A stretch of 31,568 nucleotides of DNA from an uncultured bacterium (GCA_903859225.1 CAIOLV010000001.1:1-31568); one strand, 5' to 3'. Positions 1 to 29,787 are shown, counted from the stretch's first letter. The notes: generated from the sequence alone by a model not told the origin. Made by a program: numbers and translations.

Positions 1-14
1 ACGGGAGGAGAGAC

Positions 15-2802: not shown

Positions 2803-2811
2803 GGGGTCATC

Positions 2812-3909: not shown

Positions 3910-3930
3910 GACTCGAAAGGAGTGGGCGCG

Positions 3931-6593: not shown

Positions 6594-6594
6594 C

Positions 6595-8241
6595 ATGCGT
6601 CGCCTGGCTCGCCGGGCGGTTGTCGTCGCCCTCGTGATGGTCGGGGTCGGTGGGTCGGCTCTCTTCGCGGCCGGCGTTGGCGGCGTCGTGTTCCTCGACA
6701 AGAACCACAACGGCGCCCTCGACAGCGGGGAGACAGGCGTGTCGGGCGCTGTCGTGAGCGATGGGTTGAACGTAGTGCGCACGGACGATGCGGGTCGGTT
6801 CTCGCTTCCAGACAACAACGGAGCACGGTTCGTTTTCCTCTCCACTCCGAACGGGATGAAGCCCTCGGCCGGTTGGTACCGCGCCGTCGCGGAGGGCGGC
6901 TCGTACGTATTCCCGCTGGAAACGCGCGACGAATCCGGCCCGCTCGTCTTTGCGCAGCTCTCGGACATTCACTACGCCCCGGACCCAGAGGCATTCTCCC
7001 GCGCGTTCGCGGATCGCGAGATGGCGTTCTTGCCCAACGGGACTCTCGATGGGCTCGTCGCCGAGATCAACCCCCTCGCGCCCGACTTCGTGATCCTCAC
7101 GGGCGACATCATCGCCAATGCGAAGGGGCCGGAGCTCGACGAGGTCAAGTCGTGGTTCACGACGATGGATGATGGGTTCGTGTCGCGATTCACGGTGCCG
7201 GTCTACGAGGCGATGGGGAACCACGACGAGGTGCGGGATCCGGCCGTGGACAAGGCAGTGTACGAAGATCACTTCGGCCCGACCTACTACTCGTTCAACG
7301 TGAAGGGCACGCACTGCGTCGTCCTCGATCTCCACCAGCTTCAGGGGACGTCCCAGATCTACTCGCTCAGCGCGGCGGAGCTTGACTGGCTGCGCCGGGA
7401 CCTGGCCCTGGTCGGTGCGAATGCGCCGATTCTCGTCTTCTGTCACGAGCCGACGCCCGACTGGGCACAGACGCCGGAGAACGCCGCGTTGTGGGACCTT
7501 CTCGCCGGCTCGAACATCACGGCGCTCCTGAACGGCCACTGGCACACGAACTTCGTCCTGCGTGAGGAGCCGTTCTACGAGCTCACGTCGGGCGCGGTCT
7601 GCGGTTCGTGGTGGGAAGGACCGAACCCGGACGGCACGGGCTTCGGGTACCGCATCTACGAGATGTCGCGGGGCCGACTAGCAAGCACGTGGCGCACGGT
7701 GGGAGCGAATGTCGTCTCGTTCACGTCCCCGACCGCGGCGGCTCTCACGTGGACCGACCGCCTGGTCGCCAGCGTATGGGGCGAGGCGGCGTCAGCGGCC
7801 TACTGCTGGGACGGCGGCGCGAACGTGACGATCGATGTCGCGTCGAACGGTCTCTGGAGCACGGCGGCCGGCAATCTGAACGTGGCAACGCTCCCGTCGG
7901 GCTACCACACGCTCACCATCACGTTCTCGATGACGAGTGGGGGACCGATCGTGGGTCGGCAGGCGTTCTACGTCTTCGTGCCGGGGCTGTCCCTCAGCGA
8001 TTTCATCGATCACCCCGAGGTGTTCCAGGGGAAAATGGTCGGGACGACGGCGCTCGAGGTGCGTGCCGTGATGGGAGCCGACATCTCGGCGACCGACGGC
8101 ACGAAGACCATCATCGTGGCTAAGTTCCCACTCTCGGTGGCGAAGGGAGATCGCGTTTCGGTGGTCGGCATGTACCGGGCGACGAGCGCGGATCCGATCA
8201 AGGCCTTTGACCTGATCTTCAGCGTCAAGCTTGCGAAGTAG
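6595..8241 (+). CDS. Secreted calcineurin-like phosphoesterase with N-terminal SdrD/CnaB-like domain and C-terminal extension
   Basis: Signal peptide MRRLARRAVVVALVMVG; GVVFLDKNHNG..D.GE.GVSGAVVSDG; binuclear motifs SDIH, TGDII, GNHD, CHEP, GHWH; CGSWWEGPNPDGT; SD GGGAGG; 548 aa. Confidence 0.85.
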   Translation: MRRLARRAVVVALVMVGVGGSALFAAGVGGVVFLDKNHNGALDSGETGVSGAVVSDGLNVVRTDDAGRFSLPDNNGARFVFLSTPNGMKPSAGWYRAVAEGGSYVFPLETRDESGPLVFAQLSDIHYAPDPEAFSRAFADREMAFLPNGTLDGLVAEINPLAPDFVILTGDIIANAKGPELDEVKSWFTTMDDGFVSRFTVPVYEAMGNHDEVRDPAVDKAVYEDHFGPTYYSFNVKGTHCVVLDLHQLQGTSQIYSLSAAELDWLRRDLALVGANAPILVFCHEPTPDWAQTPENAALWDLLAGSNITALLNGHWHTNFVLREEPFYELTSGAVCGSWWEGPNPDGTGFGYRIYEMSRGRLASTWRTVGANVVSFTSPTAAALTWTDRLVASVWGEAASAAYCWDGGANVTIDVASNGLWSTAAGNLNVATLPSGYHTLTITFSMTSGGPIVGRQAFYVFVPGLSLSDFIDHPEVFQGKMVGTTALEVRAVMGADISATDGTKTIIVAKFPLSVAKGDRVSVVGMYRATSADPIKAFDLIFSVKLAK

Positions 8242-8264
8242 GTTGTGCGCAGGGAGGTAGTGCG

Positions 8265-9539
8265 ATGAGACGAGCAATGGGGATGCTGGGCATGGCGGCG
8301 CTGTTCGCGGCCACGGCCGCGGTGTGCGCCGGAGCGGTGACGCTGCAGTTCCTGACGCCGGCTTGGCAGGAAGACACGGTGACCGAGGTCGAGAACATCG
8401 TCGCGGAGTGGAATGCGGCGCGGCCGGATATCCAGGTGGAGATGGTCTCGGTGGCGTGGGAGAACATCAACGACTACCTCCTCACGAGCTTCCAGGCCGG
8501 ACAGGGACCGGATGTGATCCACCAGGACACGGTCATGTGTTACGAGTATGGTGTCCAGGGGTACGCGGAGCCGCTCAACCAGTATCTCGATGCCGCGACG
8601 CTGGCCGATACGCCCCAGGCGAGCTGGGACGGTGTCAGCGACGATCAGGGAAGCATCTACGGCGTCCCATTCCTGCAGGAAACGCTGGTCGTCTTCTACA
8701 ACAAGGCGATGTTCGCCACAGCGGGGATCACTCCGCCGGCCGACGGGATGGTCACGTGGGCCGAGCTGCGGGACTACGCGCTCCGACTGACAAAGACGGA
8801 TGCGAGCGGTCAGACGACGACGTGGGGGCTCCTGGCGCCTCTCGAACAGCGGCTTTGGTGGTGCCTTGTTGCGCAAAACGGCGGACAGGTCCTCGCGAAA
8901 CATGCCGACGGCACGTGGTACGTCGAGATCGACCAGGCGGCCCGGCAGGCGATCGAGTACTACACCAACCTGATTACGGTGGACCACGTCATGCCGCAGG
9001 ACGTCCTGAGCTATGACTTCACGAGCCTGCTCCAGGGCTTCAAGACGGGCAAGTACGCAATGTTTACTTTCGGATGCTGGGTCCGGAGCTGGATCAACAA
9101 CCTGACTCAGAACCAACTCGACTGGGGAATGCTCGAGGTCAAGGGTCCGGTGCGCAATGTCACGGAATCCGACCCGCAGGGCGTCTTCATCTACTCCGGC
9201 TCGGCTCACAAGGACGAGGCGGCGCAGTTCCTGCTCTACTTCACCAACACCGAGAACCAGGCGCGCATCGCGAAGGCCGACTGGCTCTTCCCCATTCGCC
9301 AGTCGGCGCTCGCACGCCCGGAGTTTCGGACAACACAGGAACAGTGGAATGTCCTCTATCAATGGCTTCCGTTCGCGGAGGATGTGAAGCCGAAGATGTT
9401 CGGCTTCTTCGGCTGGGAATGGCAGTCATTTATCCCGCAGATTGAGCAGGTCATCCTTGGATCGAAGACCCTGGATAAGGCGCTGCAGGCGGCGACGGAC
9501 GATGGGAACGAGTACCTTCGCCGCATGGGACTTCAATAG
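8265..9539 (+). CDS. ABC transporter substrate-binding protein (CUT1 sugar/nucleoside family)
   Basis: Signal peptide; GQGPDVI, IYGVPF, VFYNKAMF, TWAEL, FKTGKYAMF; SD GGAGGT; permeases nearby; 424 aa. Confidence 0.92.
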   Translation: MRRAMGMLGMAALFAATAAVCAGAVTLQFLTPAWQEDTVTEVENIVAEWNAARPDIQVEMVSVAWENINDYLLTSFQAGQGPDVIHQDTVMCYEYGVQGYAEPLNQYLDAATLADTPQASWDGVSDDQGSIYGVPFLQETLVVFYNKAMFATAGITPPADGMVTWAELRDYALRLTKTDASGQTTTWGLLAPLEQRLWWCLVAQNGGQVLAKHADGTWYVEIDQAARQAIEYYTNLITVDHVMPQDVLSYDFTSLLQGFKTGKYAMFTFGCWVRSWINNLTQNQLDWGMLEVKGPVRNVTESDPQGVFIYSGSAHKDEAAQFLLYFTNTENQARIAKADWLFPIRQSALARPEFRTTQEQWNVLYQWLPFAEDVKPKMFGFFGWEWQSFIPQIEQVILGSKTLDKALQAATDDGNEYLRRMGLQ

Positions 9540-9626
9540 GAGAGAGACGAAGGAGGTGGTTCGGCGCGCGCAGAGGTTGGCTGGAAGGGGATGTCTAGAA
9601 GGCTTTCGAGGGGGAAGGAGGACCAC

Positions 9627-10148
9627 GTGAAGCGAACGTTATGTCTCGGTGTGCTCTTGGCCGCACTTGTGGGCGCCACGGTGTGGGCCACCGGCACGGT
9701 GCCGACGGGGGATGTCGTCCTGACGATTTCGGGGCCAATGATTCTGATGAATAGGTGGGACGCGGCAGCTGGTGCTGGCGTGTGCGACTTCGACATGGAC
9801 ATGCTGAAGGCCGTGCCTGTCACAACCTACACGGTCACCGATCCGTGGCTGGGCGAGAAGACCTATACGGGAGTCCGTCTGTCCGATCTGCTCAAGTGGA
9901 TTGCCGTGGACCAGTACGCGGTGAAGGTCGTCATTGTCTGCTCGGACGCGGCGGAATTCGTTATCCAGATTAAGGATGCGGCACAGTACCCGATCATGAT
10001 CGCGTATGCATCCAACAGCAAGGTTATCAAGGCGGGCTCCGGCGGCCCACTGAAGGTCGTGTACCCGTACCAGATCGAGGGCGTCGAAGCTCTCTACGGC
10101 CCCGATAACTGGGCATGGTACGTGGTTGGGATTCGCGTGGAGTACTAG
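9627..10148 (+). CDS. Secreted sulfite-oxidase/molybdopterin-binding-fold protein (COG3915-like)
   Basis: Signal peptide MKRTLCLGVLLAALVGATVWA; VVLTISG, FDMDML, TDPW, YTGVRLSDLL, GPLKVVYP, WAWYVVGIRVE; SD AAGGAGG before GTG 9627; 173 aa. Confidence 0.7.
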   Translation: MKRTLCLGVLLAALVGATVWATGTVPTGDVVLTISGPMILMNRWDAAAGAGVCDFDMDMLKAVPVTTYTVTDPWLGEKTYTGVRLSDLLKWIAVDQYAVKVVIVCSDAAEFVIQIKDAAQYPIMIAYASNSKVIKAGSGGPLKVVYPYQIEGVEALYGPDNWAWYVVGIRVEY

Positions 10149-10167
10149 GCGCAAAGGGCCTTTGGCT

Positions 10168-10194
10168 GAGGGAGGGGGCAGCGCCCCCTCCCTC
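10168..10194 (+). other. Strong intergenic stem-loop (mRNA stabiliser or attenuator candidate)
   Basis: GAGGGAGGGGGC-AGC-GCCCCCTCCCTC: perfect 12-bp stem, 3-nt loop, no U-tract; preceded by CAAAGG-G-CCTTTG (10152-10164). Confidence 0.7.
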
Positions 10195-10248
10195 GCGAGA
10201 TCCACGCCATTGCCGGCGTGTCCGGCACGGAACACGGAGCGGGAACCT

Positions 10249-11292
10249 ATGCCGCGCAGCCAGAATGAGATGAAGATCGTCGAGCTTGTGGAGCTCGGAC
10301 GCGTGGAGACGCGGACGGCTCCGGTCCCGGTCCCGGGTCCGGGCGAGGCACGCCTGCGCGTGCGCGCCGTCGGACTCTGCGGCACGGATGTGAAGGCCTA
10401 CCGGCGCGGGCACCCCTATTTCAAGCCGCCGTGCGTGCTCGGCCACGAGGTCGTCGGAGCGATCGACGCCGTCGACGATGCGGTTCGAGGACTTGCAGTG
10501 GGCGAGCGCGTGGTCTGTGCGCCCTACGCGGAGTGCGGTGGGTGTCCGATCTGCCGCCGCGGCGTCGGCGAGCTGTGCGAGCACAAAGCATTCATTGCCG
10601 GCGCGCTGCAGGAGTACTTGATCCTCTCCGCCGACATCCTCGCCCGAGGCACGTTCCGCGTCGCGGGCGCGATGTCCGACGCCGTTGCGACCCTCGCTGA
10701 GCCACTGGCGTGCGCGATGAACGGCATCGAGCGGGCCGGCGTCCGGCGGGGCGACCGGGTTCTCGTTGTGGGTGGCGGTCCGATGGGCGCGCTGTTGGCC
10801 ATCGTCGCGCGGACGCTGTCTCCGCACGTCCTGGTGAGTGAAGTGAACCCGGCGCGCAGCGAGCATCTGCGGCGCCTCGGTCTCTCGGTCGTCAATCCCT
10901 CAGAAACGCCCCTCAGCGAAGCGCTGTCTCGGGCCTTCAGCGTGCCAGAAGCGGACCGGGTGTTGATCGCTGTCGGTGACCGCGGCGTGGCAGAGGATGC
11001 GATCGGGCTCACGGCAGCTGGAGGCACAGCGCTCCTCTTCGGCGGGTTGCCGAAAGGGGAGCGGTTGTCGCTCGACGCGTTTGCCATTCACTACCGTGAG
11101 GTGGGAGTCGTTGGGAGCTTTGGGTTCCAGGTTCGGCACTTCCGAAACGCCGTCGAGTGGATGGAGCAGCATCCCGGCGCGCTCGATGGAGTCGTCACGG
11201 CGTCGGTCCCCTTTGCCGAGGCCGCGCGGGCCTTTGTCGAGGCCGCACAACCTGATGGACTGAAGACGGTGATCCGGTTTGAAGAAGCCTAG
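10249..11292 (+). CDS. Zn-dependent medium-chain (polyol/sorbitol-type) dehydrogenase
   Basis: GLCGTD, GHE, structural Zn site CGGCPICRRGVGELC, EPLAC, GGGPMG; start at 10249 or 10270. Confidence 0.9.
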   Translation: MPRSQNEMKIVELVELGRVETRTAPVPVPGPGEARLRVRAVGLCGTDVKAYRRGHPYFKPPCVLGHEVVGAIDAVDDAVRGLAVGERVVCAPYAECGGCPICRRGVGELCEHKAFIAGALQEYLILSADILARGTFRVAGAMSDAVATLAEPLACAMNGIERAGVRRGDRVLVVGGGPMGALLAIVARTLSPHVLVSEVNPARSEHLRRLGLSVVNPSETPLSEALSRAFSVPEADRVLIAVGDRGVAEDAIGLTAAGGTALLFGGLPKGERLSLDAFAIHYREVGVVGSFGFQVRHFRNAVEWMEQHPGALDGVVTASVPFAEAARAFVEAAQPDGLKTVIRFEEA

Positions 11293-12169
11293 GCGGGAAC
11301 GCGCGGCGCGGTCGTACGTGGAGGAGAAGAGGGCCCTGCCGTTCGTGGCGCCCGCCCTCATCATCCTTTGCTTCGTGAGCCTATATCCTCTGGTTCAGGG
11401 GATCTCCCGCGTCCTGTACTCCTTCCGTGCGCTGACGGGGAAGAACGTCTACTCCGGGCTGCAGAACTTCGTCCTTCTCTTCCGCGATTCCGTCTTCGTT
11501 CACGCACTCCTGAACAGCCTCGTCTGGACCGTGACCAGTGTCGCGGCGATGTTCTTCGTGTCCTTTCTGCTGGCGACGATGCTCAACTCGCGGCATCTTC
11601 GCTTCCGTCGTGCGTTCCGGACCGTCACGCTCATTCCCTGGGCGCTGCCCGGCGTCGTCGTGTCGCTTATCTGGCGGTACATCTTCCTCTCCGGTGGGCC
11701 GCTCAACACCGCCCTTTCGGGACTTGGTGTGACCTACCCCCCGGCGTGGCTCATCGACCCGCACGTCGCCCTTTGGACGTGCATCGTCGCCAACATCTGG
11801 ATGGGAATTCCGTTCGTCACGATCATGATCCTCGCCGGGCTGCAGTCGCTCGAAGGAGACATTCTCGAGGCGGCGGCGATCGACGGCGCGAGCTACTTGC
11901 AGACGCAAGTGCGGATTGTTGTTCCGAGCATCAAGAAGGTCATTCTCATCATTCTCACGTTGGAGTCGATCTGGACCTTCAACTCGTTTGACATCGTCTT
12001 CGTCCTGACCAAAGGAGGACCGGCCAACGCGTCGATGACGCTCCCTCTCTACGCCTACACCTGGGCGTACGGCTCTCAGCAGGCCGGATACGGCGCGGCG
12101 ATCGGCATCATCATGCTGCTCATCTTGCTGAGCGTCGTCGTCCTCTACATTCGCGAGGTGCTGCAATGA
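11279..12169 (+). CDS. ABC permease (MalF/UgpA-like)
   Basis: Hydrophobic helices; EAA loop ILEAAAIDGAS; FDIVFVLTKGGP; start uncertain (TTG 11279 or GTG 11318). Confidence 0.9.
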   Translation: MKKPRRERAARSYVEEKRALPFVAPALIILCFVSLYPLVQGISRVLYSFRALTGKNVYSGLQNFVLLFRDSVFVHALLNSLVWTVTSVAAMFFVSFLLATMLNSRHLRFRRAFRTVTLIPWALPGVVVSLIWRYIFLSGGPLNTALSGLGVTYPPAWLIDPHVALWTCIVANIWMGIPFVTIMILAGLQSLEGDILEAAAIDGASYLQTQVRIVVPSIKKVILIILTLESIWTFNSFDIVFVLTKGGPANASMTLPLYAYTWAYGSQQAGYGAAIGIIMLLILLSVVVLYIREVLQ

Positions 12170-12993
12170 GGATGCATCCGGTCAAGCAAGTCCTCCTCCA
12201 CGTCGCGGTTCTCGTGATGATCGCCTTCCTCGTGTTCCCCGTCCTCCTCCTCGTGTTCAACTCCCTCAAGACGCAGACCCAGATCTTCGCGTCTCCGATG
12301 GGGATTCCACACGGCGTGACCTGGGACAACTTCCGCACGGTCATTGCAGGGGGCACGTTTCTGGTCAACCTTCGGAACTCGGTCATCGTCGCGTTCTCGA
12401 CCGTAATCCTCGCCGTCATCGTGACCGCGCCGGCCGGCTACGCCCTGTCGCGGTTCAAGTTCCGTGGGCGGACGGCGTTCTCGATGTGGCTCCTGGCGAC
12501 TCAGGCGTTTCCCGGAATCATCATGGTGCTTGGGCTGTTCACCGTGTTGAAGGTGTACGGACTGATCAACCAGCTGCCGGGGCTCGTGATCATGCACACG
12601 AGCTTTGCTCTTCCGTTCTCGATTTGGCTCCTCAAGGGGTACTTCGACAAGATCCCGATTGACCTGGAGGAGGCGGCGAGGATCGACGGCTGCACGCGCC
12701 TACGGGCGCTCGTGAGCATCATCCTGCCGCTCTCCGTGCCCGGTCTCCTGGCGGTGGCCACGTTCTCGCTCCTCCTGTCGTGGAATGAGTTCTTCTTCGC
12801 CCTCGTCATCATGCGCACGAACGAGAGCTGGACGTTGCCGGTATACCTCGCTCGATTCCTCGGATCAGGTGGCGTCGTACAATGGGGGCCGCTGTCGGCG
12901 GCTGCGCTGCTCGTCACGATCCCCGTGTTCATCCTCTTCCTCTTGGGACAACGGTATCTCGTTTCGGGACTGACGGGAGGGGCCATCAAGTGA
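12166..12993 (+). CDS. ABC permease (MalG/UgpE-like)
   Basis: GYALSRFKFRG, EAA loop LEEAARIDGC, SWNEFFFAL; ATGA overlap. Confidence 0.93.
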   Translation: MRMHPVKQVLLHVAVLVMIAFLVFPVLLLVFNSLKTQTQIFASPMGIPHGVTWDNFRTVIAGGTFLVNLRNSVIVAFSTVILAVIVTAPAGYALSRFKFRGRTAFSMWLLATQAFPGIIMVLGLFTVLKVYGLINQLPGLVIMHTSFALPFSIWLLKGYFDKIPIDLEEAARIDGCTRLRALVSIILPLSVPGLLAVATFSLLLSWNEFFFALVIMRTNESWTLPVYLARFLGSGGVVQWGPLSAAALLVTIPVFILFLLGQRYLVSGLTGGAIK

Positions 12994-14045
12994 CAGGTAC
13001 CGAACCTCTCGGCCGAATCGGAGTGGTTGCAAATCCTTGTGCAGGCGCCGGGCCGGACGTCCTCCGTGCCGTGCTCTCCGGCCTGTTCAGCCGCCTTCGC
13101 GAGGGTGACGTCGTGCTGAACGAGCGGACGTTCGAGGCCGCGGAGGCCGACGCCTGCGGGCTCGAGTGCACGAAGGTCCATGGACCGGCGGGCGATGCGC
13201 GACGTCTCACCGAGGCGCTGCTGGCCGCGGGCGTAGAGACCGTGATCGGCGTCGGGGGCGACGGGACACTGGGCGAGATCGCGACGGCGCTCGCGCTCGG
13301 CGAGAACGGCGTGCGGCTCTTGGGCATCGGAATCGGGTCATCGAACGTCGGCCCGCTGGTCGGAGCTTCGTTCGGAGAGCTGGACGCGTTCTTCGACGCT
13401 CCGTGGGTTGGCGTCGCGGTGCACGCGCTCGACGTCCGCGTGGGCGGGACGCAGGTGGGAATGGCGTTCCACGACGCGGGCCCCGCAAACACCTACTTTG
13501 GCACCCGGAACGGCCGCAGAGTGGATCTGGACGCAGCGGCCGCACTGCACGGCATCGATCGGCCGGCCGAGCCGGCGTCGGTTTGCGGCGCGGGGACCTG
13601 GATTGCGAAGAACGGTCGGAGGTGTCTATCGGGGCAGGAGACGGCAGGCGGCCAAATCGTCGCTTCGCCGCTCAACGATGTCGGCGAGTGCCGCGGCAAA
13701 GCGGTGAGCGGTTTCCTGTGCTGGGGACCGTATGTCGGGTGCCGTGGGGTCGTCGCCGTGTCGAGCGCGGTGATGATCCGCACCCGGCTGTCGCGTGAGG
13801 ACCTTTGCGCGGCGGAGCCGCTCCGGCTGTTCCATCTTGGGCTCGCCCCGGAGGACGTCGTCGAATTCGGCGGGCTCCCGCGTGGCGCGGTCGTCGTGGT
13901 GGACGGGACGCCGCGCCTCGAGCTGGCGCCGGAGATGACGGTATCCATTCGCGCCTTGGAGGGTGCCGTCGTCTCGATTCGTCGGGAGTCGGGGCGCGTG
14001 GACGTGAGCATGAAGGAGGAGGGATGCAATACCGCGGGATCGTGA
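12990..14045 (+). CDS. NAD-kinase / diacylglycerol-kinase-fold protein (AcoX-like), substrate unknown
   Basis: IGVVANPCAG and GVGGDGT motifs, GSSN; GTGA overlap with the permease stop; SD GGGAGG; 351 aa. Confidence 0.65.
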   Translation: MTGTEPLGRIGVVANPCAGAGPDVLRAVLSGLFSRLREGDVVLNERTFEAAEADACGLECTKVHGPAGDARRLTEALLAAGVETVIGVGGDGTLGEIATALALGENGVRLLGIGIGSSNVGPLVGASFGELDAFFDAPWVGVAVHALDVRVGGTQVGMAFHDAGPANTYFGTRNGRRVDLDAAAALHGIDRPAEPASVCGAGTWIAKNGRRCLSGQETAGGQIVASPLNDVGECRGKAVSGFLCWGPYVGCRGVVAVSSAVMIRTRLSREDLCAAEPLRLFHLGLAPEDVVEFGGLPRGAVVVVDGTPRLELAPEMTVSIRALEGAVVSIRRESGRVDVSMKEEGCNTAGS

Positions 14046-14938
14046 TCGAGGACACCTTCTGCGAGTGCACGGACATCTACACGGCGCGCCTTATCCTGAC
14101 GGCGGCGACCGAGGGAATTGCGATGGCCGAAGCGAGCTACTTGTGCGGCTTCGGGATCATCACCGCGTCCCCCATTCAAGGCTGCATCGAAGGGTTCGTC
14201 TCGCCCATCCTGACCCCGGACGGCCGTGCAGGCGTGGCTCTCCAACTGAACGCTCCGACGGCCGTGGGATTCGAGACATTCAAGCACGCGCTTCTCGACC
14301 GCCTCTTCATCTTCCCGCATCTCCCGACGTGCTCTCTGTTCGACGGCGCGGCGAGCGCGCCCGTCGAATGGGTCGTCGACCTTGCGGCGCGCGTCTCACG
14401 CTGGGGCGACGGGTTCGAGGCCAACGATCGCGTGGGGGACCGTGAAGTGGTGCGGATGCCGATCATGACCGGCGACCAGTACATCGAGCGCCGCGTGCAC
14501 GTCGTCGCGGGCACCGATGGCGTGCTGGAGGTCTTCGGAAAGGACGAAGCGTCGTGCATGCAGGGAGCGATGGAGGCAGCGGCGTGGGTCGTGCGCGATG
14601 CGCCGGGCGTCGCGGTGTTCAACTACCCAGTCGGCGGGATCAGCGGCGCCAAGGTCGGAGGGAACCGATACAAGGGCGAGGGTGTGACGATCAATGAGCC
14701 GTTCTGCCCGACGCTGCGGAAGAGCGTGCCGACCAAGATCCCACAAGGCGCGAACTGCGTCATCGAGTTCCCGCTCGTCGCGACATCGCTGGAGGCGATG
14801 AAGGTCGGACTGGGCGTGGCGATCAAGGCGTTCGTCCGCACGGCGGGCATCGTCGCGATCACGGCGCCGTCGTTCGGCGGCGCGTGGGGCGGCAGAAAGC
14901 TGGCCCTGCGCGATGTCGTCCCGGCGGACAAAGGCTAG
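14024..14938 (+). CDS. ftr: Formylmethanofuran:tetrahydromethanopterin formyltransferase homologue (divergent)
   Basis: Colinear Ftr signatures IEDTF.E, AR...TAA, GFG, TPDGR.G, LLDR, PT..FD, GDGF, KVG, FCPT, CV.E, FGG..G; SD AAGGAGGAGG; 304 aa. Confidence 0.85.
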   Translation: MQYRGIVIEDTFCECTDIYTARLILTAATEGIAMAEASYLCGFGIITASPIQGCIEGFVSPILTPDGRAGVALQLNAPTAVGFETFKHALLDRLFIFPHLPTCSLFDGAASAPVEWVVDLAARVSRWGDGFEANDRVGDREVVRMPIMTGDQYIERRVHVVAGTDGVLEVFGKDEASCMQGAMEAAAWVVRDAPGVAVFNYPVGGISGAKVGGNRYKGEGVTINEPFCPTLRKSVPTKIPQGANCVIEFPLVATSLEAMKVGLGVAIKAFVRTAGIVAITAPSFGGAWGGRKLALRDVVPADKG

Positions 14939-14952
14939 GGGCGGGAGGCTCG

Positions 14953-15966
14953 ATGGCGCGGATGACGAGTGCAGAGCAGGCGTGGGCCGCAGCGCGGGTG
15001 ACCGAACTGGTCGCCTCGCTGTTGCGCGATGCGCCCGTGCTCGACATCACATCGCACCGCGGCCCGAGCGGCGCCGCGATCGTCGACTGCGGGGTCGACG
15101 TCCGCGGTTCATGGGAGGCGGGGCGCCGCATCGCCGTTGTGTCCCACGCCGGGATGATGAACGCGACGCTTGGGGTCTCCGACGTCGCTCGATTGTCGCT
15201 CCCCGAATTCGTCGGCGATTCGTGGCGCCCGTACTTGTCGACGTACGGGCTGCAGGTGTCCTTCGCGCTCTCCGAGGTCGATCCCGCGATCCGTATCTCG
15301 GGCCCGGTGCGTGCGGCGATCGACGACGGGCTCAGGACAACGTCCTCCGCGGTCGAGGGCGCCGCTTCTCGCGACACCAATCCCTGGGGTGTTGCGGTGG
15401 TCGAGTCCGACCGCCTGCCGGACGAGGCGGTCGTTGCGGCGATCGGTCGCCGGGCGGGCCTGCGGCCGGACGAGCTCACGCTTCTCGTGGTCCCATCGAG
15501 GAGCCTTGCCGGCGTGACGCAGATCGCTGGACGGCTGAACGAGTGTGTCCTCTTCACGCTCGACCAGTCGCTCGGACTGGATCCGAAGTCCGTCCTGGGA
15601 ATCCTCGGCGCAGTCCCGATCGCTCCGTGCGGCGCCGGCGCGTTCGCCACCCAGGATGACATGATTCACTACGCCGGGCGGGTGACGATGGTGGTCGATG
15701 CCCCCGCGAGCTGGAGTCTCCAGGTCGTGGCAGACGGGCTCGTCTTTCGCTCGTCGTCTGCCTACGGCCGGCTCTTCTCCGAACTCCTGGCCGAAGCAGG
15801 CGGCGTCTTTGAAGCGATTCCGGGACTCAACGATCTGAACAAGGTTGCGCAGATCGCCGTCGTCGACCGACGCACCGCGAAGATGGCGACGGCAGGCGCC
15901 GTCGATGGGGCGATCCTCGCCTCCGCCGCGAAGCGGGCCGGAAGGGGACGCGATGAACTCCCGTGA
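14953..15966 (+). CDS. mch: Methenyl-tetrahydromethanopterin cyclohydrolase homologue (divergent)
   Basis: IVDCGVDVRGSWEAG, SGPVRA, ESDRLPD, P..L.LLV.P..S..G..QI.GR..E, G.VPIAP, DDMIHYAG, S.S.YGR.F; SD GGGAGG; 337 aa. Confidence 0.85.
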   Translation: MARMTSAEQAWAAARVTELVASLLRDAPVLDITSHRGPSGAAIVDCGVDVRGSWEAGRRIAVVSHAGMMNATLGVSDVARLSLPEFVGDSWRPYLSTYGLQVSFALSEVDPAIRISGPVRAAIDDGLRTTSSAVEGAASRDTNPWGVAVVESDRLPDEAVVAAIGRRAGLRPDELTLLVVPSRSLAGVTQIAGRLNECVLFTLDQSLGLDPKSVLGILGAVPIAPCGAGAFATQDDMIHYAGRVTMVVDAPASWSLQVVADGLVFRSSSAYGRLFSELLAEAGGVFEAIPGLNDLNKVAQIAVVDRRTAKMATAGAVDGAILASAAKRAGRGRDELP

Positions 15967-17815
15967 GATCATCCCGCACAGGATCATCACCGTGGACCTT
16001 GCCAGCGGGTCGACGCGCGAGGAGACCTGTGGTACGAGCGACCTCCAGGCCTTCCTCTGCGGGCGCGGAGCCGCGGCGCACCTCCTGGCGCAGCGCTCGT
16101 TCTGGCGCCACGATCCGCTCGATCCGGCGTCGCCGTTCGTGATGGCGAGCGGCCTGCTCAACGGAACCCCGTGGCCGGCGTCGACGCGCGTCCATATGGC
16201 CTTTCGGTCTCCGCTGACCGGGATCTACGGCTATGCGAACTCCGGCGGATCGCTCGGGCCGCACCTCGCCGCGCACGGGATCCTCGCTCTCGAGTTGGTC
16301 GGACGCGCGGATCGCCCCACGACCGTCGAGGTGAGCGATGCCGGCATCCGACTCTGCGACGCCGAGGACCTCTGGGGAAGAGGCGTGTCTGAGACCACGT
16401 CCTCGCTCCGCGCGGGAAGGCCGTTGGCGGCCGTGGCGTGCATCGGCGTGGCCGGCGAGCGTCGCGTCCCGCTCTCCGCTGTGATGGTGGACGGCGAACG
16501 CGCCGCTGCGCGCTGCGGGGGAGGCGCGGCCCTCGGTGCGAAGAATGTGAAGGCCGTCGTGGTTCACGGAGGAGCCAGGGCGCGGTTTCCGGAGGCGTTC
16601 CTTGCGAGCTGCCGCGCGGCGACGGCGCGGATTCTGGCGACACCCGGCATCGCCGACCTGTCCCGCTGGGGCACTCCGCTCCTCGTCGCGATCAAGAATG
16701 AGCACGGCGACCTCCCCGCGATGAATCACCGCCGGGGCCAAGTCCCGTTCGCCGACCGAATCGACGCCGATGCCCTCGAGGCCTACCGCGTCGAGACGAA
16801 GGGCTGCCCCGGCTGCCCGATCCGCTGCGGTCGCGTCTCGGAGGTCCGATCGGGCGCCCATCGCTCTCGCAGTGCGGGGCCCGAGTACGAGACCGTGGAC
16901 GCCCTCGGTCCGGACTGCCTGTGCGGAGACGTCGAGGCGCTGCTTCATGCCAACGCCCTGTGCAACGAGCTCGGTCTCGACACCATCTCGGTCGGCGCGA
17001 CGATCGCGTTCGCCATGGAGTGCCACGAGAACGGCCTGCTGGACGACGGGGAGTTGGACCTTTCGTGGGGAAACGGAGACACGGTCGTCGCGCTCGTCGA
17101 GCGGATGGCCCGTCGAGAGGGTATCGGCGAATTGCTCTGCGGCGGGGTCCGAGCCGCGGCCCTCGAACTCGGACCGGCCGCCGCGCCCTACGCGCTCCAC
17201 GTGAAGGGGCTCGAGATCCCAGGACAGGAGCCGCGGGTGGCGAAGAGCTTCGGGTTGGGGCACGCCACGTCGAATCGGGGCGCCGATCATCTCTACGCGC
17301 TCCCGACCGTCGATGTCGCCGGACTGGACGGCGCGGCTCGGCGGCTGCTTCCCGACGTCTATCCGCGCGTGCTCGATCCGGACGACGAGACGTCGAAGGC
17401 GGCGCTCGTGCGGTTCGGGGAGGACTACTGCGCCGTCTCCGATGCCCTCGGCGTATGCAAATTCACGACGACGGAGATGTACGCGCTCGATCCGGAGCAT
17501 CTGGCCGACGCGCTCGGAGTGCTCGGGATGTCCTTCGACGCGGCGCACCTCCTCGAGGCGGGAGAGCGCATCGTCAACCTCGAGCGGCTCCTGAACGCGC
17601 ACCTCGGCGTCGAAGCGCACGACGACACGCTGCCGGCGCGGTTCACCGACGAGGCGCTGTGCGTCGAGCGCCAGGGTGGGGTGGACGCCCACCGGATTCA
17701 TTCACTCTCGTCAATGATCGAGGAGTACTACCGCCTGCGCGGCTGGGCGGCGGACGGGCTTCCGACAGCGCTGACACTGGAGCGGCTCCGCCTCGCCGAG
17801 TGGAGGCCATCGTGA
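15953..17815 (+). CDS. aor: Tungsten aldehyde:ferredoxin oxidoreductase family protein, copy 1
   Basis: RSPLTG, NSGG, CPGCPIRC, GPEYET, NELGLDTIS, RGADH, LGVCKF, YYRLRGW; 620 aa. Confidence 0.92.
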   Translation: MNSREIIPHRIITVDLASGSTREETCGTSDLQAFLCGRGAAAHLLAQRSFWRHDPLDPASPFVMASGLLNGTPWPASTRVHMAFRSPLTGIYGYANSGGSLGPHLAAHGILALELVGRADRPTTVEVSDAGIRLCDAEDLWGRGVSETTSSLRAGRPLAAVACIGVAGERRVPLSAVMVDGERAAARCGGGAALGAKNVKAVVVHGGARARFPEAFLASCRAATARILATPGIADLSRWGTPLLVAIKNEHGDLPAMNHRRGQVPFADRIDADALEAYRVETKGCPGCPIRCGRVSEVRSGAHRSRSAGPEYETVDALGPDCLCGDVEALLHANALCNELGLDTISVGATIAFAMECHENGLLDDGELDLSWGNGDTVVALVERMARREGIGELLCGGVRAAALELGPAAAPYALHVKGLEIPGQEPRVAKSFGLGHATSNRGADHLYALPTVDVAGLDGAARRLLPDVYPRVLDPDDETSKAALVRFGEDYCAVSDALGVCKFTTTEMYALDPEHLADALGVLGMSFDAAHLLEAGERIVNLERLLNAHLGVEAHDDTLPARFTDEALCVERQGGVDAHRIHSLSSMIEEYYRLRGWAADGLPTALTLERLRLAEWRPS

Positions 17816-19725
17816 CGGCATTCCACGGCGGCTACGTCGGTGTCGTGTTGGACGTCGACCTCACAAAGCGACGCGTCGCATCGCGGCCCCTCGATCCCGC
17901 TCTCGCGCGCCGCGTCCTCGGGGGAAGCGGGCTGGGAGCAGAGGTTCTCTGGGACGAGGTCGGGCCCGACGTGGATCCTCTGTCGCCGGAGGCCGTCCTC
18001 ATCGTGGCGACCGGACCGCTCACGGGCACGCCGTGGCCGTGCTCCGGCCGAACGGAGGCCGTCGCCCGTTCGCCGCTGACCGGCATCTACGGCGACTCGA
18101 ATGCAGGGGGAACGTTCGGTCCTGGGCTCAAGTCTGCGGGATTCGATGCGATCGTCGTCCGCGGCGGCTCGACGGACCCGGTGGTTCTGCGCATCGCCGA
18201 CGGGCGCGCGACGATCGACGACGCGGGCAGCGTCTGGGGTCTCGACACGGTCGAGACGGAGGCGGCATTGCGTGCTCGGTACGCTGCGCCTGCGCTGCAG
18301 GTGGCGTCGATCGGACCGGCCGGCGAGCGCGGCGTTCGCTTCGCGTCGATTCAGGCGACGCCCAATCGAAGCTTCGGCCGATGCGGACTCGGCGCGGTGA
18401 TGGGTGCGAAAGGTCTGAAGGCGATCGCGGTGTCCGGCTCGAGGCGCGTGCCGATCGCCGAGCCGGCGGCGTTCGCAGAGCTGGCGAAGACGATGCACGC
18501 CCGCATCCGAGCTAACGCGATGTTCCCGGCGTGCTCGCGTTACGGCACTCCCGGTCTCGTGCGGGTCGTGAACGAGATCGGTCGCTTCCCGACGCGCAAC
18601 TTCCAGGACGGCGAGTTTGCCGGAGCCGAGGCGATCAGCGGAGAAGCGCTGCGAGAACGGTTCTTCGTCGCGGACGCGGGATGCTTCGCCTGTCCGGTGC
18701 GTTGCGACAAGGTGTACCGCATCTCGAGCGGACGGTTTGCCGGCGTCGAGACGTCGAGCGTCGAGTACGAGACGCTCAATGCCTTCGGGGCGGGGCTCGG
18801 GAACGCGGATCTCGAACTCATCCTCTACGCGAACGAGCGCTGCGACCGCCTGGGGCTCGACACGATCTCTGCCGGCCGGGCGATCGGCTTCGCGATGGAA
18901 CTGGTCGAGCGCGGCGTCGTGTCGCGCGAGGATCTCGGAGGACTCAGCGGGATGTGGGGAGACGAAGCGACGATCGTCGGGCTCCTAGACTGCATCGCCG
19001 CTCGCGACGGGATCGGCGACGTGCTGGCCGACGGGGTCCGCCGAGCCGCCGTAGCTTTCGGTGCCGCGGCGGCGCCGTACGCGATGGAGGTCAAAGGGAT
19101 GGAGATCCCTGCGCAGGACGGACGCGCGCAGCAGTCGATGGGACTGGCGCACATCACCTCGAACCGCGGCGCGGATCACCTGAAGGCGTTTCCGACGATC
19201 GACGAGACCGGGAACCCTGATGAAGTCGCGCGGCGGTACGGGTCGCAGTACCTGCCGGAGATGGCCGATCCCCACGCGACGCGGCACAAGGCGCTGCTCG
19301 TGAAGGACGGCGAGGACTTTGGTGCGGTCGTCGACTCTGTTGGGGTCTGCAAATCCGGCGGGACGTTCGTCATGGCTGAGATCTACTGGACCGACATCGC
19401 GGCTGGCGTTTCCGCCGCCACCGGGTGGCGGCTCGAAGAGTCGGAGCTGCGGGTGATTGGAGAACGGATCGTCAACCTGACCCGTGCCTACAACGGCCGC
19501 CTCGGGGTGACGCGGGCCGACGATCGTCTTCCGGACCGTCTGACTCACGAGCCATCCCCGGCCCGCGGAGCGCGCGGCCACGTGGCGCACGCTGAGGAGC
19601 TGCTCGACGAGTACTACGGCCTGCGCGGCTGGGATGCTGCACGGGGATGGCCGACAGAAGAGACGCTCGACCGCCTCGGGCTCGGCGATGCGCGGCTCGC
19701 TCTCTGGGGGCAAGGCGATGGATAG
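17812..19725 (+). CDS. aor: Tungsten aldehyde:ferredoxin oxidoreductase family protein, copy 2
   Basis: LGGSGLG, RSPLTG, SNAGG, GRCGLGAVMGAKGLKAI, CFACPVRC, EYET, DRLGLDTIS, RGADH, VGVCK, YYGLRGWD; GTGA overlap; 637 aa. Confidence 0.93.
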   Translation: MTAFHGGYVGVVLDVDLTKRRVASRPLDPALARRVLGGSGLGAEVLWDEVGPDVDPLSPEAVLIVATGPLTGTPWPCSGRTEAVARSPLTGIYGDSNAGGTFGPGLKSAGFDAIVVRGGSTDPVVLRIADGRATIDDAGSVWGLDTVETEAALRARYAAPALQVASIGPAGERGVRFASIQATPNRSFGRCGLGAVMGAKGLKAIAVSGSRRVPIAEPAAFAELAKTMHARIRANAMFPACSRYGTPGLVRVVNEIGRFPTRNFQDGEFAGAEAISGEALRERFFVADAGCFACPVRCDKVYRISSGRFAGVETSSVEYETLNAFGAGLGNADLELILYANERCDRLGLDTISAGRAIGFAMELVERGVVSREDLGGLSGMWGDEATIVGLLDCIAARDGIGDVLADGVRRAAVAFGAAAAPYAMEVKGMEIPAQDGRAQQSMGLAHITSNRGADHLKAFPTIDETGNPDEVARRYGSQYLPEMADPHATRHKALLVKDGEDFGAVVDSVGVCKSGGTFVMAEIYWTDIAAGVSAATGWRLEESELRVIGERIVNLTRAYNGRLGVTRADDRLPDRLTHEPSPARGARGHVAHAEELLDEYYGLRGWDAARGWPTEETLDRLGLGDARLALWGQGDG

Positions 19726-21052
19726 GCGGATCGTGCTCGGGGCAGCGGTTCTCGCGGGCGCGGACGCGTCCCTGCGACTGGATTGCGGCGTGCTGATCGA
19801 AGGCGCGCGGATCGTCGCCGTGGGCCCGAACGCCCAGTTGACCGCTCACGCGGGCGATGCCGAGATCCTCGACGCGCGCGACCTCATTCTCTGCCCCGGA
19901 TGGGTGAACGCCCATCATCACGCTTACGGCCTTCTCGCCCACGGAATCCCGATCGCGGGCGACGCGCCTCGCGGGTTCGACCGCTTCCTTTCCGACCTCT
20001 GGTGGCCGCGCGTCGAGGATCGGCTTGACGGGAGCATGATCGAGGCGGCGATGGCGGTCTCGTGCGCCGACATGATTCGCTCGGGGTTCACGGCGTTTTG
20101 TGACGTCCTGGAGGCGCCGCTGGCCGGGACGGGCGTTCTCGACCTCGAAGCGCGCGCCGTCGAACGCGCCGGGTTGCGGGCCGCCCTCTGCCTTGAGGCA
20201 TCGGAGCGACATGGCGCCGAAGTTGGCCGGCAGGCGCTGTGGGAGAACGAGCGGTTCGCCCGGGAGCGTGGGCGCGACGGACTCGTTCGCGGGATGCAGT
20301 GCCTTCACACGAGCTTCACCTGCTCGGAGGGGTTTGTGCGCGCGGCGAAGGAGAGCGCGGCCCGCGCCGGCTGCGATCTGCATCTTCACCTCTCGGAAAG
20401 CGCCTACGAGCCAAAGGAGTGCCTGCGGCGTCACGGCGTGCGCCCGGTTCACTGGTACGACCAACTGGGGTTCTGGGACGAGACGGTGCTGGCTTCGCAG
20501 GTCGTGGCGGTGACCGACGACGAGATCGCGCGGCTCGCCGAGCGTCGCGTCCGCATCGCCCACATGCCGCTCTCGAACTGCGAAGTAGGAGGAGGCATCG
20601 CGCCCATCCCGCAGATGATCGAGCGCGGCCTCGAACCAGGACTCGGAACCGACGGGTACATCAACGATCCGTTCGAAGTGATGCGCGGCGCGTTCCTCCT
20701 CCACAAAGGGGCGGCGCGAGATGCGTCGGTGATGCCGGCGCGGACGGTGCTGGGCATGGCGACGGCGTGGGGCGCCCGGGCGATCGGGTTTCCCGAGGCG
20801 GGAGCCCTCGCGCCGGGGCACCCGGCCGACCTCATCGGAATCGACGACGCTCCGGGCACGCCGCTCACAGCAGACAACGTCGCGGACCAGCTCGTTCTCT
20901 TCCGCGGGCGCGGCGACGTCAAGCTGACGATCGTGGCCGGTCGAGTGCTCTTCCGTAACGGAGTGGTCGAGACGATGGACGAAGGAGCCGTCCGAGCGGC
21001 CGCGCGCCTCGAAGTGGCGCGACTCTGGGCGGGAAGGGGGCGCGGTGGTTGA
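19718..21052 (+). CDS. Amidohydrolase (SsnA / guanine-, MTA- or pterin-deaminase-like)
   Basis: PGWVNAHHH, HLHLSE, GLGTDG, G.L.PG.PADL; 444 aa. Confidence 0.88.
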   Translation: MDRRIVLGAAVLAGADASLRLDCGVLIEGARIVAVGPNAQLTAHAGDAEILDARDLILCPGWVNAHHHAYGLLAHGIPIAGDAPRGFDRFLSDLWWPRVEDRLDGSMIEAAMAVSCADMIRSGFTAFCDVLEAPLAGTGVLDLEARAVERAGLRAALCLEASERHGAEVGRQALWENERFARERGRDGLVRGMQCLHTSFTCSEGFVRAAKESAARAGCDLHLHLSESAYEPKECLRRHGVRPVHWYDQLGFWDETVLASQVVAVTDDEIARLAERRVRIAHMPLSNCEVGGGIAPIPQMIERGLEPGLGTDGYINDPFEVMRGAFLLHKGAARDASVMPARTVLGMATAWGARAIGFPEAGALAPGHPADLIGIDDAPGTPLTADNVADQLVLFRGRGDVKLTIVAGRVLFRNGVVETMDEGAVRAAARLEVARLWAGRGRGG

Positions 21053-22100
21053 TCTGCGAGTCGACCTTGCCGGCCTCACGCTCGTGAATCCGCTTGTGCT
21101 GGCGTCGGGCCCTCTGTCGTGGAACGGTGACGCGATCGTCCGCGCGCACTGCGCCGGAGCGGCGGCGATCGTGACGAAAACGATCCGCCGCGCTGCGGCG
21201 CGTTCGCCGCGGCCGCACATCGCCGCAACTCCTCACGGGGTTCTGAACACGGAGCGTTGGTCGGACCTCGAAGCGAGGCAGTGGATCGACCACGAGATCC
21301 CGCGAGCGAAGGACGGGGGCGCAACGGTGATCGCGAGCCTGGGACTCGCCGTGGACGACGTCGTGGCGCTGGCCGAAGAACTCGAGCGGGCAGGAGCCGA
21401 TGCCCTCGAGGTCGTGTCGTACGACGAGGCCGTCCTCCCGAGCATGGTGAGCGCAGCGGTCGAGCGAGTGCGGATCCCCGTGCTTGCGAAGCTTGGCGTC
21501 AACGGGTGCGATCTCGCAGGCACCGCGCGACGGTGCGCCGAATCCGGCGCGAGCGGCATCACGGCGATCGACTCCGTCGGCCCGACGTTGCGCGTCGACC
21601 TCGCGCGTCGCCGCCCCGTTCTCGGAGCAGATTCCGCATGGTGGTCCGGTCCGGCGATCCTGCCGATCGCGCTGCACGCCGTGCACGTCCTCCGCGGCGC
21701 CGTCGCCGTGCCCATCGTGGGGACGGGGGGCGTGGCGGATGCAGACGCGGCGATCGAGATGCTGTTCGCCGGGGCCAGCGCCGTCGGGCTGTGCAGCGCT
21801 CCTCTCGTTGAGGGCCTCGGCGTCTTTTCGCGGATGCGCGAGCGGATGGCACAGCGTTTGGACGAGCTCGGCATCGCGTCCGCCCATGATGCGATCGGCG
21901 CGATGGAACGAGAGACTGCCGCGGGGTTCGCAATGGCGTTGGACGATGCGGCGTGCACGCACTGTGGCGCCTGCGTTCGGGTCTGTCCATACGCTGCGCG
22001 GCGAGGTCCTGGCGTCGTCGAAGCCGCGTGCCGCGGCTGCGGGTTGTGCGTCTCCATCTGCCCGGCAGGCGCGCTGGCGTGGGAAAGGGGTGAACGATGA
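21045..22100 (+). CDS. Dihydroorotate/dihydropyrimidine dehydrogenase (PreA)-like FMN barrel with C-terminal 2x[4Fe-4S]
   Basis: NPLVLASGP, VTKT, SGPAILP, IVGTGGV, AGASAVG; CTHCGACVRVCP and CRGCGLCVSICP; 351 aa. Confidence 0.85.
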   Translation: MVDLRVDLAGLTLVNPLVLASGPLSWNGDAIVRAHCAGAAAIVTKTIRRAAARSPRPHIAATPHGVLNTERWSDLEARQWIDHEIPRAKDGGATVIASLGLAVDDVVALAEELERAGADALEVVSYDEAVLPSMVSAAVERVRIPVLAKLGVNGCDLAGTARRCAESGASGITAIDSVGPTLRVDLARRRPVLGADSAWWSGPAILPIALHAVHVLRGAVAVPIVGTGGVADADAAIEMLFAGASAVGLCSAPLVEGLGVFSRMRERMAQRLDELGIASAHDAIGAMERETAAGFAMALDDAACTHCGACVRVCPYAARRGPGVVEAACRGCGLCVSICPAGALAWERGER

Positions 22101-29600: not shown

Positions 29601-29787
29601 CTTAGCCGTAGCGGAGTCGCGAGATGCTGTTTCCCCTCGACGGGCGACCGCTGTAGTCTGCGGTGCGGACGGCGTAGGACGAGAATCGGTACCGTGTCTC
29701 ATGCGTGATGGTCCGTCCCGCGGGACGCGGCCGGATGCCAGTTTCGGATTCGGACGGCGGCACGGGCGCCGCTCTGAGGAGGGTACG

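Follow-up and report, generated by a model that had tools for sequence, protein, structure and literature searches.

A contig of 31,568 nucleotides from an uncultured bacterium (GCA_903859225.1, CAIOLV010000001.1:1-31568), hereafter called the window, carries neighboring genes for homologs of Ftr and Mch. To our knowledge, these two enzymes are otherwise known only from methane-type one-carbon (C1) metabolism. Based on sequence comparisons, we favor with modest confidence the interpretation that the Ftr-like and Mch-like proteins encoded here are catalytically competent, are functionally shifted, and serve in the substrate-level stripping of a C1 unit within a catabolic operon. The best explanation for the pair is that it operates outside any endogenous tetrahydromethanopterin (H4MPT)/methanofuran (MFR) C1 pathway. 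The comparisons described below establish that both proteins belong to non-canonical clades, that catalytic residues are retained, that cofactor biosynthesis is absent from the host genomes searched, and that the synteny of the locus is conserved. The window is contig C1 of a 1.07 Mb metagenome-assembled genome (MAG) that is 68% complete with approximately 67% GC, and the name Candidatus Bipolaricaulota is borne by its close homologs and syntenic contigs.

Divergence and orphan status of the Ftr-like and Mch-like proteins

The two genes lie side by side, with a kinase gene upstream and two genes for AOR-family oxidoreductases downstream, exactly where a first-pass annotation of the window had placed them. 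The Ftr-like protein is a full-length match to the Pfam domains FTR (79.5 bits) and FTR_C (68.4 bits; cut-offs 27 and 25, respectively), and its residues 1-296 align with residues 1-294 of structure 1M5S (E 2e-38). An AlphaFold model with a pLDDT of 91.6 matches only Ftr structures in the Protein Data Bank (PDB), with a TM-score of 0.91 and a root-mean-square deviation of 1.8 Å relative to 1M5S, and a search of the ESM Atlas returned canonical Ftr clusters only. The protein nevertheless falls below the equivalog cut-offs of fhcD TIGR03119 (153.5 versus 292.6) and NF002554 (165.3 versus 297), and the N-terminal domain of canonical Ftr from Formimonas scores 172 bits, compared with 82 bits for that of the protein from the window.

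An exhaustive HMMER search of 1.84 billion cluster representatives retrieved just 241 representatives of the Ftr family. Five of these fall in the clade of the window's protein, after which bit scores fall from 268 to 190. A maximum likelihood tree was constructed from 83 full-length sequences, among them 52 canonical representatives. This clade joins P0085, P0086, P0088, P0120 and P0127, and the resulting group is split from the 52 canonical representatives by a branch with 99% SH-aLRT support.

The divergence is also evident at the level of individual residues. Among 79 canonical Ftr sequences from named archaea and bacteria, 52 positions are conserved at 95% or more. The clade that includes the window's protein retains 34 of these and replaces 18, and 15 of the replaced positions are themselves conserved at 88% or more inside the clade. 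These 15 include F16T, deletion of S45, I47T, E52Q, T99H, F127W, G165D, S209A, V250P, G266A, N283S and L288W, and N167V is also among the 18 replacements. Two motifs are altered: AGNYGGKLG becomes APSFGGAWGG, and SGSK becomes SGAK, with Ala present in all clade members at the position of a Ser that presumably has a catalytic role in canonical Ftr. Glu248 is invariant in the clade and aligns with the canonical invariant Glu, being the counterpart of Glu245 in M. kandleri and of Glu252 in FhcD, a conserved protonated residue proposed to stabilize the oxyanion (PMC6926001). In comparison with canonical Ftr/FhcD (EC 2.3.1.101; PF01913 and PF02741; PDB 1FTR, 1M5S, 1M5H, 2FHJ and 6S6Y), the protein thus shares full-length homology at approximately 30% identity, the two-lobe fold and the catalytic Glu. 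It differs in its separate clade, its sub-cut-off scores, its 18 replaced invariants and its catabolic gene context, and in having a host without H4MPT and MFR biosynthesis and without Fwd/Fhc in the searches described below.

The Mch-like protein presents a similar picture. It is a full-length match to Pfam MCH (PF02289; 166.9 bits versus a cut-off of 25), its residues 18-322 align with residues 10-310 of 1QLM (E 4e-24), and its AlphaFold model (pLDDT 90.7) matches only Mch structures in the PDB (TM-scores 0.80-0.86). It remains below the equivalog cut-off (TIGR03120, 143.9 versus 228.8), and scores of 419-464 bits with PF02289 were obtained for canonical Mch proteins encoded by Archaeoglobus, Methanocaldococcus, Methanoregulaceae, Methylococcales and Schlesneria genomes. 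The protein belongs to a long-branch clade, here called type A (support 100/100), together with those of other Bipolaricaulota and one copy from an Atribacteria-labeled contig. Members of type A are 21-29% identical to canonical Mch. Related clusters contain two more bacterial types of Mch, designated B and C, of which type C is nearer to the canonical enzyme, at 30-43% identity.

Arg194 and Glu197 are invariant in the Mch clade and align exactly with positions 183 and 186 of Archaeoglobus Mch, which we take to be the catalytic pair of this enzyme (Arg183/Glu186 in A. fulgidus numbering, with 4GVR and 4GVS as structures of the E186Q variant). The clade retains 31 of 55 canonical Mch invariants and changes the other 24, of which 10 are conserved at 88% or more inside the clade. 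The likeness to canonical Mch (EC 3.5.4.27; PF02289; PDB 1QLM, 4GVQ/4GVR/4GVS and 4FIO) therefore extends to the fold and the Arg/Glu catalytic pair. The differences are the low identity, the long branch, the 24 changed invariants, the much lower family score (167 versus 419-464 bits) and the translational coupling of the gene to catabolic genes.

Both proteins are superfamily members by fold and are not canonical orthologs. As the first-pass annotation had predicted, the Ftr and Mch phylogenies place them on separate, well-supported branches found in catabolic-type clusters. Judged from the alignments, the residue pattern in both proteins is that of a functional shift under purifying selection rather than decay, because catalytic residues are kept while other invariants are replaced, mostly by clade-specific residues.

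Pfam scans of all large open reading frames in the window revealed no fae, mtd, fhc/fwd or cofactor-biosynthesis genes, in agreement with the first-pass annotation. Marker searches were then extended to 11 genomes that carry the pair, namely the window's own MAG and those of 10 relatives, of which eight are at least 90% complete. All of the searches apart from that for MtdB gave positive results in named control genomes. RFAP synthase (MptG), MfnB of the MFR pathway and FwdC/FhcC were each found in none of the 11 genomes, and Fae and Mtd were each found in none of five. MtdB gave no match in the pair-carrying genomes, and the control genomes were silent as well. Formate-tetrahydrofolate ligase (FTHFS) and an FTCD-type formiminotransferase (FTCD_N) were each present in five of five genomes. 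The pair is therefore an orphan, as had been proposed, and no complete H4MPT/MFR pathway was found elsewhere in the genomes searched, with the window's own genome (G000) being 68% complete.

The distribution of the pair is patchy, as is typical of an accessory catabolic trait. Within the same family, 10 of 36 genomes have the Ftr-like gene, compared with none of 24 others of the class. The Mch-like gene adjoins it in 10 of 11 Ftr-positive genomes, with the Mch match being shortened in G012 and G014.

The closed 6.4 Mb genome of Candidatus Formimonas warabiya (L108/G066, CP017634) carries both forms of Ftr. A canonical island encoding RFAP synthase, Ftr and Mch is located at 861894-873562, and a divergent Ftr-like paralog is located at 3238111-3238554 in a catabolic-type cluster. 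Because the two coexist, the divergent branch is expected to have a distinct function, and this bacterium is a tractable organism for testing the paralog. Formimonas warabiya is a cultured dichloromethane fermenter, and it has a second Mch gene at 262723.

Operon organization and gene neighborhoods

Pfam and NCBIfam scans of all large open reading frames place the pair inside a plus-strand array of approximately 20 genes. The features of this array and of the convergent gene at its end are as follows, with assignments derived from Pfam/NCBIfam matches unless another basis is given.

4852-5850, plus strand: LacI/RbsR-like regulator
5847-6593, plus strand: DhnA-type class I aldolase
6577-8241, plus strand: metallophosphoesterase, predicted to be secreted (also from a signal-like N-terminus)
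8265-9539, plus strand: CUT1 binding protein (also with a signal-like N-terminus)
9591-10148, plus strand: small Oxidored_molyb-like protein, predicted to be secreted (from a signal-like N-terminus)
about 10249-11292, plus strand: zinc-dependent alcohol dehydrogenase (Zn-ADH)
11279-12993, plus strand: two permeases
12990-14045, plus strand, GTG start: DAGK_cat/YegS-like kinase
14024 (ATG) to 14938 (stop), plus strand: Ftr-like protein of 304 amino acids, P0001 (Pfam FTR and FTR_C)
14953 (ATG) to 15966 (stop), plus strand: Mch-like protein of 337 amino acids, P0002 (Pfam MCH)
15953-17815, plus strand: AOR1, an AOR-family tungsten/molybdopterin oxidoreductase (Pfam AFOR_N, AFOR_C)
17812-19725, plus strand: AOR2, of the same family (Pfam AFOR_N, AFOR_C)
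19718-21052, plus strand: SsnA-like amidohydrolase
21045-22100, plus strand: DHOD/PreA-like flavoprotein with two [4Fe-4S] motifs
22097-23425, plus strand: COG0402 amidohydrolase of the deaminase type (nearest solved structures)
23409 to about 24821, plus strand: GlcD-like FAD oxidoreductase (profile scans)
24824-25963, plus strand: CCG Fe-S partner of the GlcD-like enzyme (profile scans)
25976-27328, plus strand: ADP-ribosylglycohydrolase-family protein (ARH; Pfam ADP_ribosyl_GH, 164.7 bits)
27325-28311, plus strand: ribokinase (TIGR02152, 309.6 versus a cut-off of 299.65)
28221-29891, minus strand: D-hydantoinase/dihydropyrimidinase (TIGR02033, 389.4 versus a cut-off of 393.25)

The kinase and ftr genes overlap by 22 base pairs, ftr and mch are separated by 14 base pairs, and mch and the AOR1 gene overlap by 14 base pairs. 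Given this spacing, the four genes from the kinase through AOR1 are translationally coupled. Shine-Dalgarno sequences read directly from the DNA precede ftr (GGAGGAGG) and mch (GGGAGG).

The nearest solved relatives of the COG0402 amidohydrolase (22097-23425) are the MTA/SAH deaminase 4F0R and 8-oxoguanine deaminase, and that of the metallophosphoesterase (6577-8241) is the phosphodiesterase Rv0805. The binding protein, the ARH protein and the kinase have only generic or weak PDB relatives that give no substrate clue. The hydantoinase gene, which is convergent with the operon end, may complete the set of ring-cleavage enzymes.

Relatives of the Ftr-like protein occur in Bipolaricaulota, on Atribacteria-labeled contigs, and in Chloroflexota, Spirochaetota and Bacillota. 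The full operon recurs in many Bipolaricaulota MAGs. The gene order of its front half (4852-12993) is kept in loci L005, L008, L009, L015 and L019, and the DAGK_cat/YegS-like kinase upstream of the Ftr-like gene is conserved in the loci of this phylum. The constant partner of the Ftr-like gene is the COG0402 amidohydrolase. An amidohydrolase gene resides beside the Ftr-like gene in every context examined that is longer than a few kilobases (L002 to L119), and orthologs of the 22097-23425 protein with 45-89% identity are present in L002-L012, L015 and L003/L004. Other genes often found nearby encode a polyol-type trio of sugar kinase, Zn-ADH and DhnA-type aldolase, as well as a GlcD/CCG oxidoreductase, the ARH and ribokinase pair, a phosphoesterase and an importer. 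The genes for AOR1, AOR2 and the SsnA-like and PreA-like proteins form a movable cassette, which in the window lies between mch and the COG0402 amidohydrolase gene. In L002 and L019 the two AOR genes are located at the end of the operon, and the sequenced parts of L009 and L011 show no AOR gene after mch.

Clusters that combine Ftr-like, Mch-like and COG0402 proteins vary in their other components, and their importers differ. The Atribacteria-labeled contig encodes the Ftr-like protein, two Mch paralogs, two COG0402 amidohydrolases and two Bmp-type ABC importers, together with opine/sarcosine-oxidase-like subunits and a thiamine pyrophosphate-dependent (TPP) E1 pair. Locus L017 encodes Mch, an MFS transporter, an amidohydrolase, the Ftr-like protein, DUF2193, PfkB, ARH and an FGGY kinase, together with a phosphoesterase and a second Mch, and the pair of ARH and ribokinase genes adjoins the Ftr-like gene there too. 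In loci L021 and L022, the Ftr-like protein and Mch of types B and C are encoded together with an amidohydrolase, an importer of the CUT1 type, a Zn-ADH and an aldolase. Two Mch paralogs per cluster, one divergent and one nearer to canonical, are present in L003, L017 and L022, and L022 also has two different Ftr-like genes. Such doubling hints at several related substrates or C1 states.

A sister subclade of Ftr-like proteins, from Formimonas, Anaerolineae/Chloroflexia and Spirochaetes (L109-L119), has a strictly fixed gene order: FGGY kinase, DeoC aldolase, FAD oxidase, CCG, amidohydrolase, Zn-ADH, Ftr-like protein and AKR. No Mch gene lies beside the Ftr-like gene in this subclade, and whole-genome searches found none in two Chloroflexia genomes. 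Asn or Thr occupies the catalytic Glu position in the three members aligned (P0088, P0120 and P0127). Near the Formimonas Ftr-like gene are genes for an ECF-type importer, which has two ATPases and a CbiQ T-component, and for a Pterin_bind protein, GcvH and a URO-D methyltransferase.

Several other characteristics of the window were recorded. The 9591-10148 protein has 185 amino acids and a weak Oxidored_molyb match (38.9 bits), and in every Bipolaricaulota operon its gene is conserved between the binding-protein and Zn-ADH genes. The GlcD-like gene contains an in-frame TAG at 24609-24611 (DERR*DAWEYG), where homologs read DERSSEAFEYG (L002) and DERRNDAWEYG (L019). Past this codon, the frame runs on to the LDPNGILNPG end, which is conserved, and ATG 24824 is the probable start of the CCG gene. 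The TAG represents a nonsense mutation, a sequencing or assembly error, or a site of read-through. The flanks of the array (3-4692 and 29299-31152) encode a POR gamma-like fragment, an ADP-forming acetyl-CoA synthetase-like protein, an aminotransferase and a Metallophos_2 protein, with a PKD-domain protein on the downstream side.

Proposed chemistry, candidate substrates and alternatives

The first-pass annotation had proposed that the pair is repurposed to remove a formyl group and open a ring. This core idea gains from the orphan status of the pair, from the separate clades and from the catalytic residues kept among changed invariants. Its specific chemistry, the opening of a cyclic amidinium and the loss of an N-formyl group from a heterocycle, is plausible, with the evidence giving equal room to an imported substrate that is genuine C1-loaded H4MPT and to passage of the C1 unit to host folate. 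Its ancillary argument, that the neighboring amidohydrolases and tungsten enzymes echo an FwdA plus tungsten-oxidoreductase architecture, had to be abandoned, as the amidohydrolases are of the COG0402/SsnA and hydantoinase types, the AOR pair is movable, and the constant partner is the COG0402 amidohydrolase. An FwdA-like role for the amidohydrolases was likewise rejected, since family and structure comparisons match them best to COG0402 deaminases, SsnA and hydantoinase.

We propose that the LacI-controlled operon would import and dismantle a phosphorylated amino-N-heterocycle that bears ribose and a polyol. Because catalytic residues are retained, a two-step scheme in which the Mch-like protein acts before the Ftr-like protein can be envisioned. 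The Mch-like protein would hydrolyze a cyclic N-CH=N+ (amidinium) group next to a 2-amino-4-oxopyrimidine ring to yield an N-formyl group, which the Ftr-like protein would then remove, either to water or to an amine acceptor. The deformylated heterocycle would thereby become open to the linked COG0402 deaminase and to reductive ring cleavage. Other parts of such a compound could be assigned to other products of the operon. The ribose would be processed by ARH and by ribokinase, which is identified at the equivalog level, and the polyol chain would be cleaved to dihydroxyacetone phosphate and an aldehyde, for which AOR or AKR would serve as a sink. A 2-hydroxyacid or secondary amine moiety would be the target of GlcD/CCG, and an amino-substituted fused pyrimidine that of the deaminase and the SsnA-like, PreA-like and hydantoinase ring-cleavage enzymes.

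One tentative candidate for the substrate is methenyl- or formyl-H4MPT from the necromass of archaea (methanogens), whose catabolism by this operon we regard as possible rather than probable. The phosphodiester of this coenzyme would be cleaved by the metallophosphoesterase, its alpha-ribose would be handled by ARH and ribokinase, and its hydroxyglutarate by GlcD/CCG. The aryl-ribitol would be degraded by the kinase, Zn-ADH and aldolase to give an aldehyde for AOR, and the pterin by the deaminase and the ring-cleavage enzymes. The comparative sequence data are compatible with this candidate. The sequence of the locus is present in freshwater sediment and wetland metagenomes, and this habitat is compatible with a methanopterin substrate as well. 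A second candidate, regarded with similar caution, is a purine nucleoside of the guanine type, for example 7-methylguanosine. Opening of the imidazole ring would give a formamidopyrimidine whose local structure is as in N5-formyl-tetrahydropterin. This candidate corresponds to the inference of the first-pass annotation. Flavin or F420, considered on account of the ribityl chain and phosphodiester, was ranked lower as a substrate given the lack of a C1 unit, an exocyclic amine and ribose, and cobamide alpha-ribazole was ranked low given the lack of a polyol and of a target for the deaminase.

A metatranscriptome from the same sample as a DNA sequencing run bearing the locus includes short contigs that map to 13904-14054 and 14027-14316 (ftr, 98% identical) and others that map to the genes for the Oxidored_molyb-like, Zn-ADH, GlcD-like and ribokinase proteins. 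These provide weak evidence that a near relative of the operon is transcribed.

Several explanations compete with C1 stripping in catabolism. In one of them, the C1 unit is harvested onto host folate. The Ftr-like protein would take the formyl or formimino group of a ring-opened catabolite and pass it to tetrahydrofolate (H4F), and the Mch-like protein would cyclize the product to methenyl-H4F, which would feed FolD and formate-H4F ligase for ATP production in analogy to FTCD in purine and histidine fermentation. The hosts are folate-based, as evident by FTHFS in all five genomes, and both enzyme families recognize pterin coenzymes. The changed invariants could mark a switch from H4MPT to H4F. 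Moreover, the Formimonas-type operon adjoins genes for a Pterin_bind protein, GcvH and a URO-D methyltransferase, and energy gain would provide a reason to use a transferase over a simple hydrolase. However, a standard formiminotransferase is already encoded in five of five genomes, and the conversion of N5-formyl-H4F to methenyl-H4F is unfavorable without ATP, which counts against such a harvest of C1 units. We therefore consider this explanation improbable. The prediction that Bipolaricaulota are largely folate auxotrophs (PMC13408713) is neutral in this regard. Another use of the pair as a coenzyme-dependent system, in which imported methanopterin or a fragment of it acts as a vitamin-like coenzyme in a truncated C1 route, seems distinctly unlikely. 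It would account for the retained catalytic residues, for the importer and secreted phosphoesterase in the operon, and for the ECF-type importer beside the Formimonas Ftr-like gene, given that importers of this class often carry vitamins and cofactors. However, the searches found neither Mtd nor Fae nor Fwd/Fhc, through which the two steps could be linked to other reactions, a source of MFR is absent, and the co-transcribed deaminase-type, ring-cleaving and sugar-catabolic enzymes argue for destruction of the compound rather than its use.

Perhaps the pair is an ordinary H4MPT-linked one whose endogenous pathway has been missed in incomplete MAGs. The window's MAG is indeed only 68% complete, and there are reports of H4MPT-linked genes from several bacterial phyla, among them Firmicutes and Chloroflexi (PMC5020050). 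We judge this very unlikely, as the markers were not found in eight genomes that are at least 90% complete while controls were positive, the proteins have sub-equivalog scores and separate clades, and Formimonas has a canonical island plus a paralog. Alternatively, the folds might be kept for unrelated chemistry, such as the transfer or hydrolytic removal of an acyl or amidino group of the non-C1 kind, or for a binding or scaffold role in a catabolic complex. The heavy replacement of invariants, including the Ser to Ala change of the SGSK motif in all clade members, and the absence of the catalytic Glu from some members of the sister subclade would be explained in this manner. This also seems unlikely, given that Ftr Glu248 and Mch Arg194/Glu197 are invariant in the window's clade and that Ftr-like and Mch-like proteins are repeatedly encoded together, as would be expected of enzymes that act in succession on the same C1 unit.

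Certain observations weigh against the favored role in catabolic C1 stripping. With the window's MAG being 68% complete, the absence of cofactor genes rests on relatives. MFR biosynthesis is absent (no MfnB in any of the 11 genomes). The match between the operon and the parts of methanopterin is argued from gene families, and several of these are generic. In the sister subclade, Mch is missing beside the Ftr-like gene and Asn or Thr replaces the catalytic Glu in some members, such that the wider family may differ in chemistry. Finally, the RNA evidence consists of a handful of short contigs from one library, in which DNA carry-over is possible.

Related systems and implications

No publication was found in the literature on this Ftr/Mch clade or its operon, although several known systems provide useful comparisons. 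In archaea, ArfA (GTP cyclohydrolase III) opens the imidazole ring of guanine to give a 5-formamidopyrimidine, and the formamide hydrolase ArfB removes the formyl group. This chemistry matches that proposed for the purine candidate, but ArfA and ArfB belong to other enzyme families, have a biosynthetic role, and act on a nucleotide. The FTCD and glycine formiminotransferase/cyclodeaminase steps of clostridial purine fermentation likewise combine a transferase with a cyclo-enzyme to remove a C1 unit during N-heterocycle breakdown. However, the protein families are unrelated, the coenzyme of FTCD is H4F, and the hosts studied here encode their own FTCD_N elsewhere.

The reductive anaerobic pathway for purines (uric acid and 2,8-dioxopurine) proceeds through XdhD, YgfK, SsnA and HyuA (PMC12507026; 10.1101/2025.04.24.650524). 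The operon in the window and its immediate surroundings share with this system an SsnA-like amidohydrolase and a flavin/Fe-S reductase, as well as an enzyme of the hydantoinase type. By analogy, the SsnA-like, PreA-like and hydantoinase proteins suggest that a fused pyrimidine is reductively dearomatized and its ring cleaved. The operon differs in lacking XdhD, YgeW, YgeX and YgeY and in having AOR-family proteins in place of a molybdenum hydroxylase, and the known pathway includes neither Ftr nor Mch.

Genome annotation and metagenome surveys take the presence of Ftr and Mch to indicate H4MPT-linked C1 metabolism, and so do arguments on the antiquity of methanogenesis genes (PMC5020050). The same opinion article lists H4MPT-linked genes in Firmicutes, Chloroflexi and other bacteria and reads them as C1-transfer genes. 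Given a multi-phylum radiation of such proteins in catabolic operons whose hosts lack the cofactors, hits of this kind cannot be read as C1 pathway potential. The findings also point to a new enzymatic use of both folds. If the substrate is a purine, the operon would represent a new ring-opening route in anaerobic purine degradation. If it is methanopterin, this would be the first catabolic pathway for methanopterin-type coenzymes and would open the recycling of archaeal coenzymes in anoxic sediments to study, with fermentative bacteria in methanogenic sediments stripping and then dismantling H4MPT from dead archaea.

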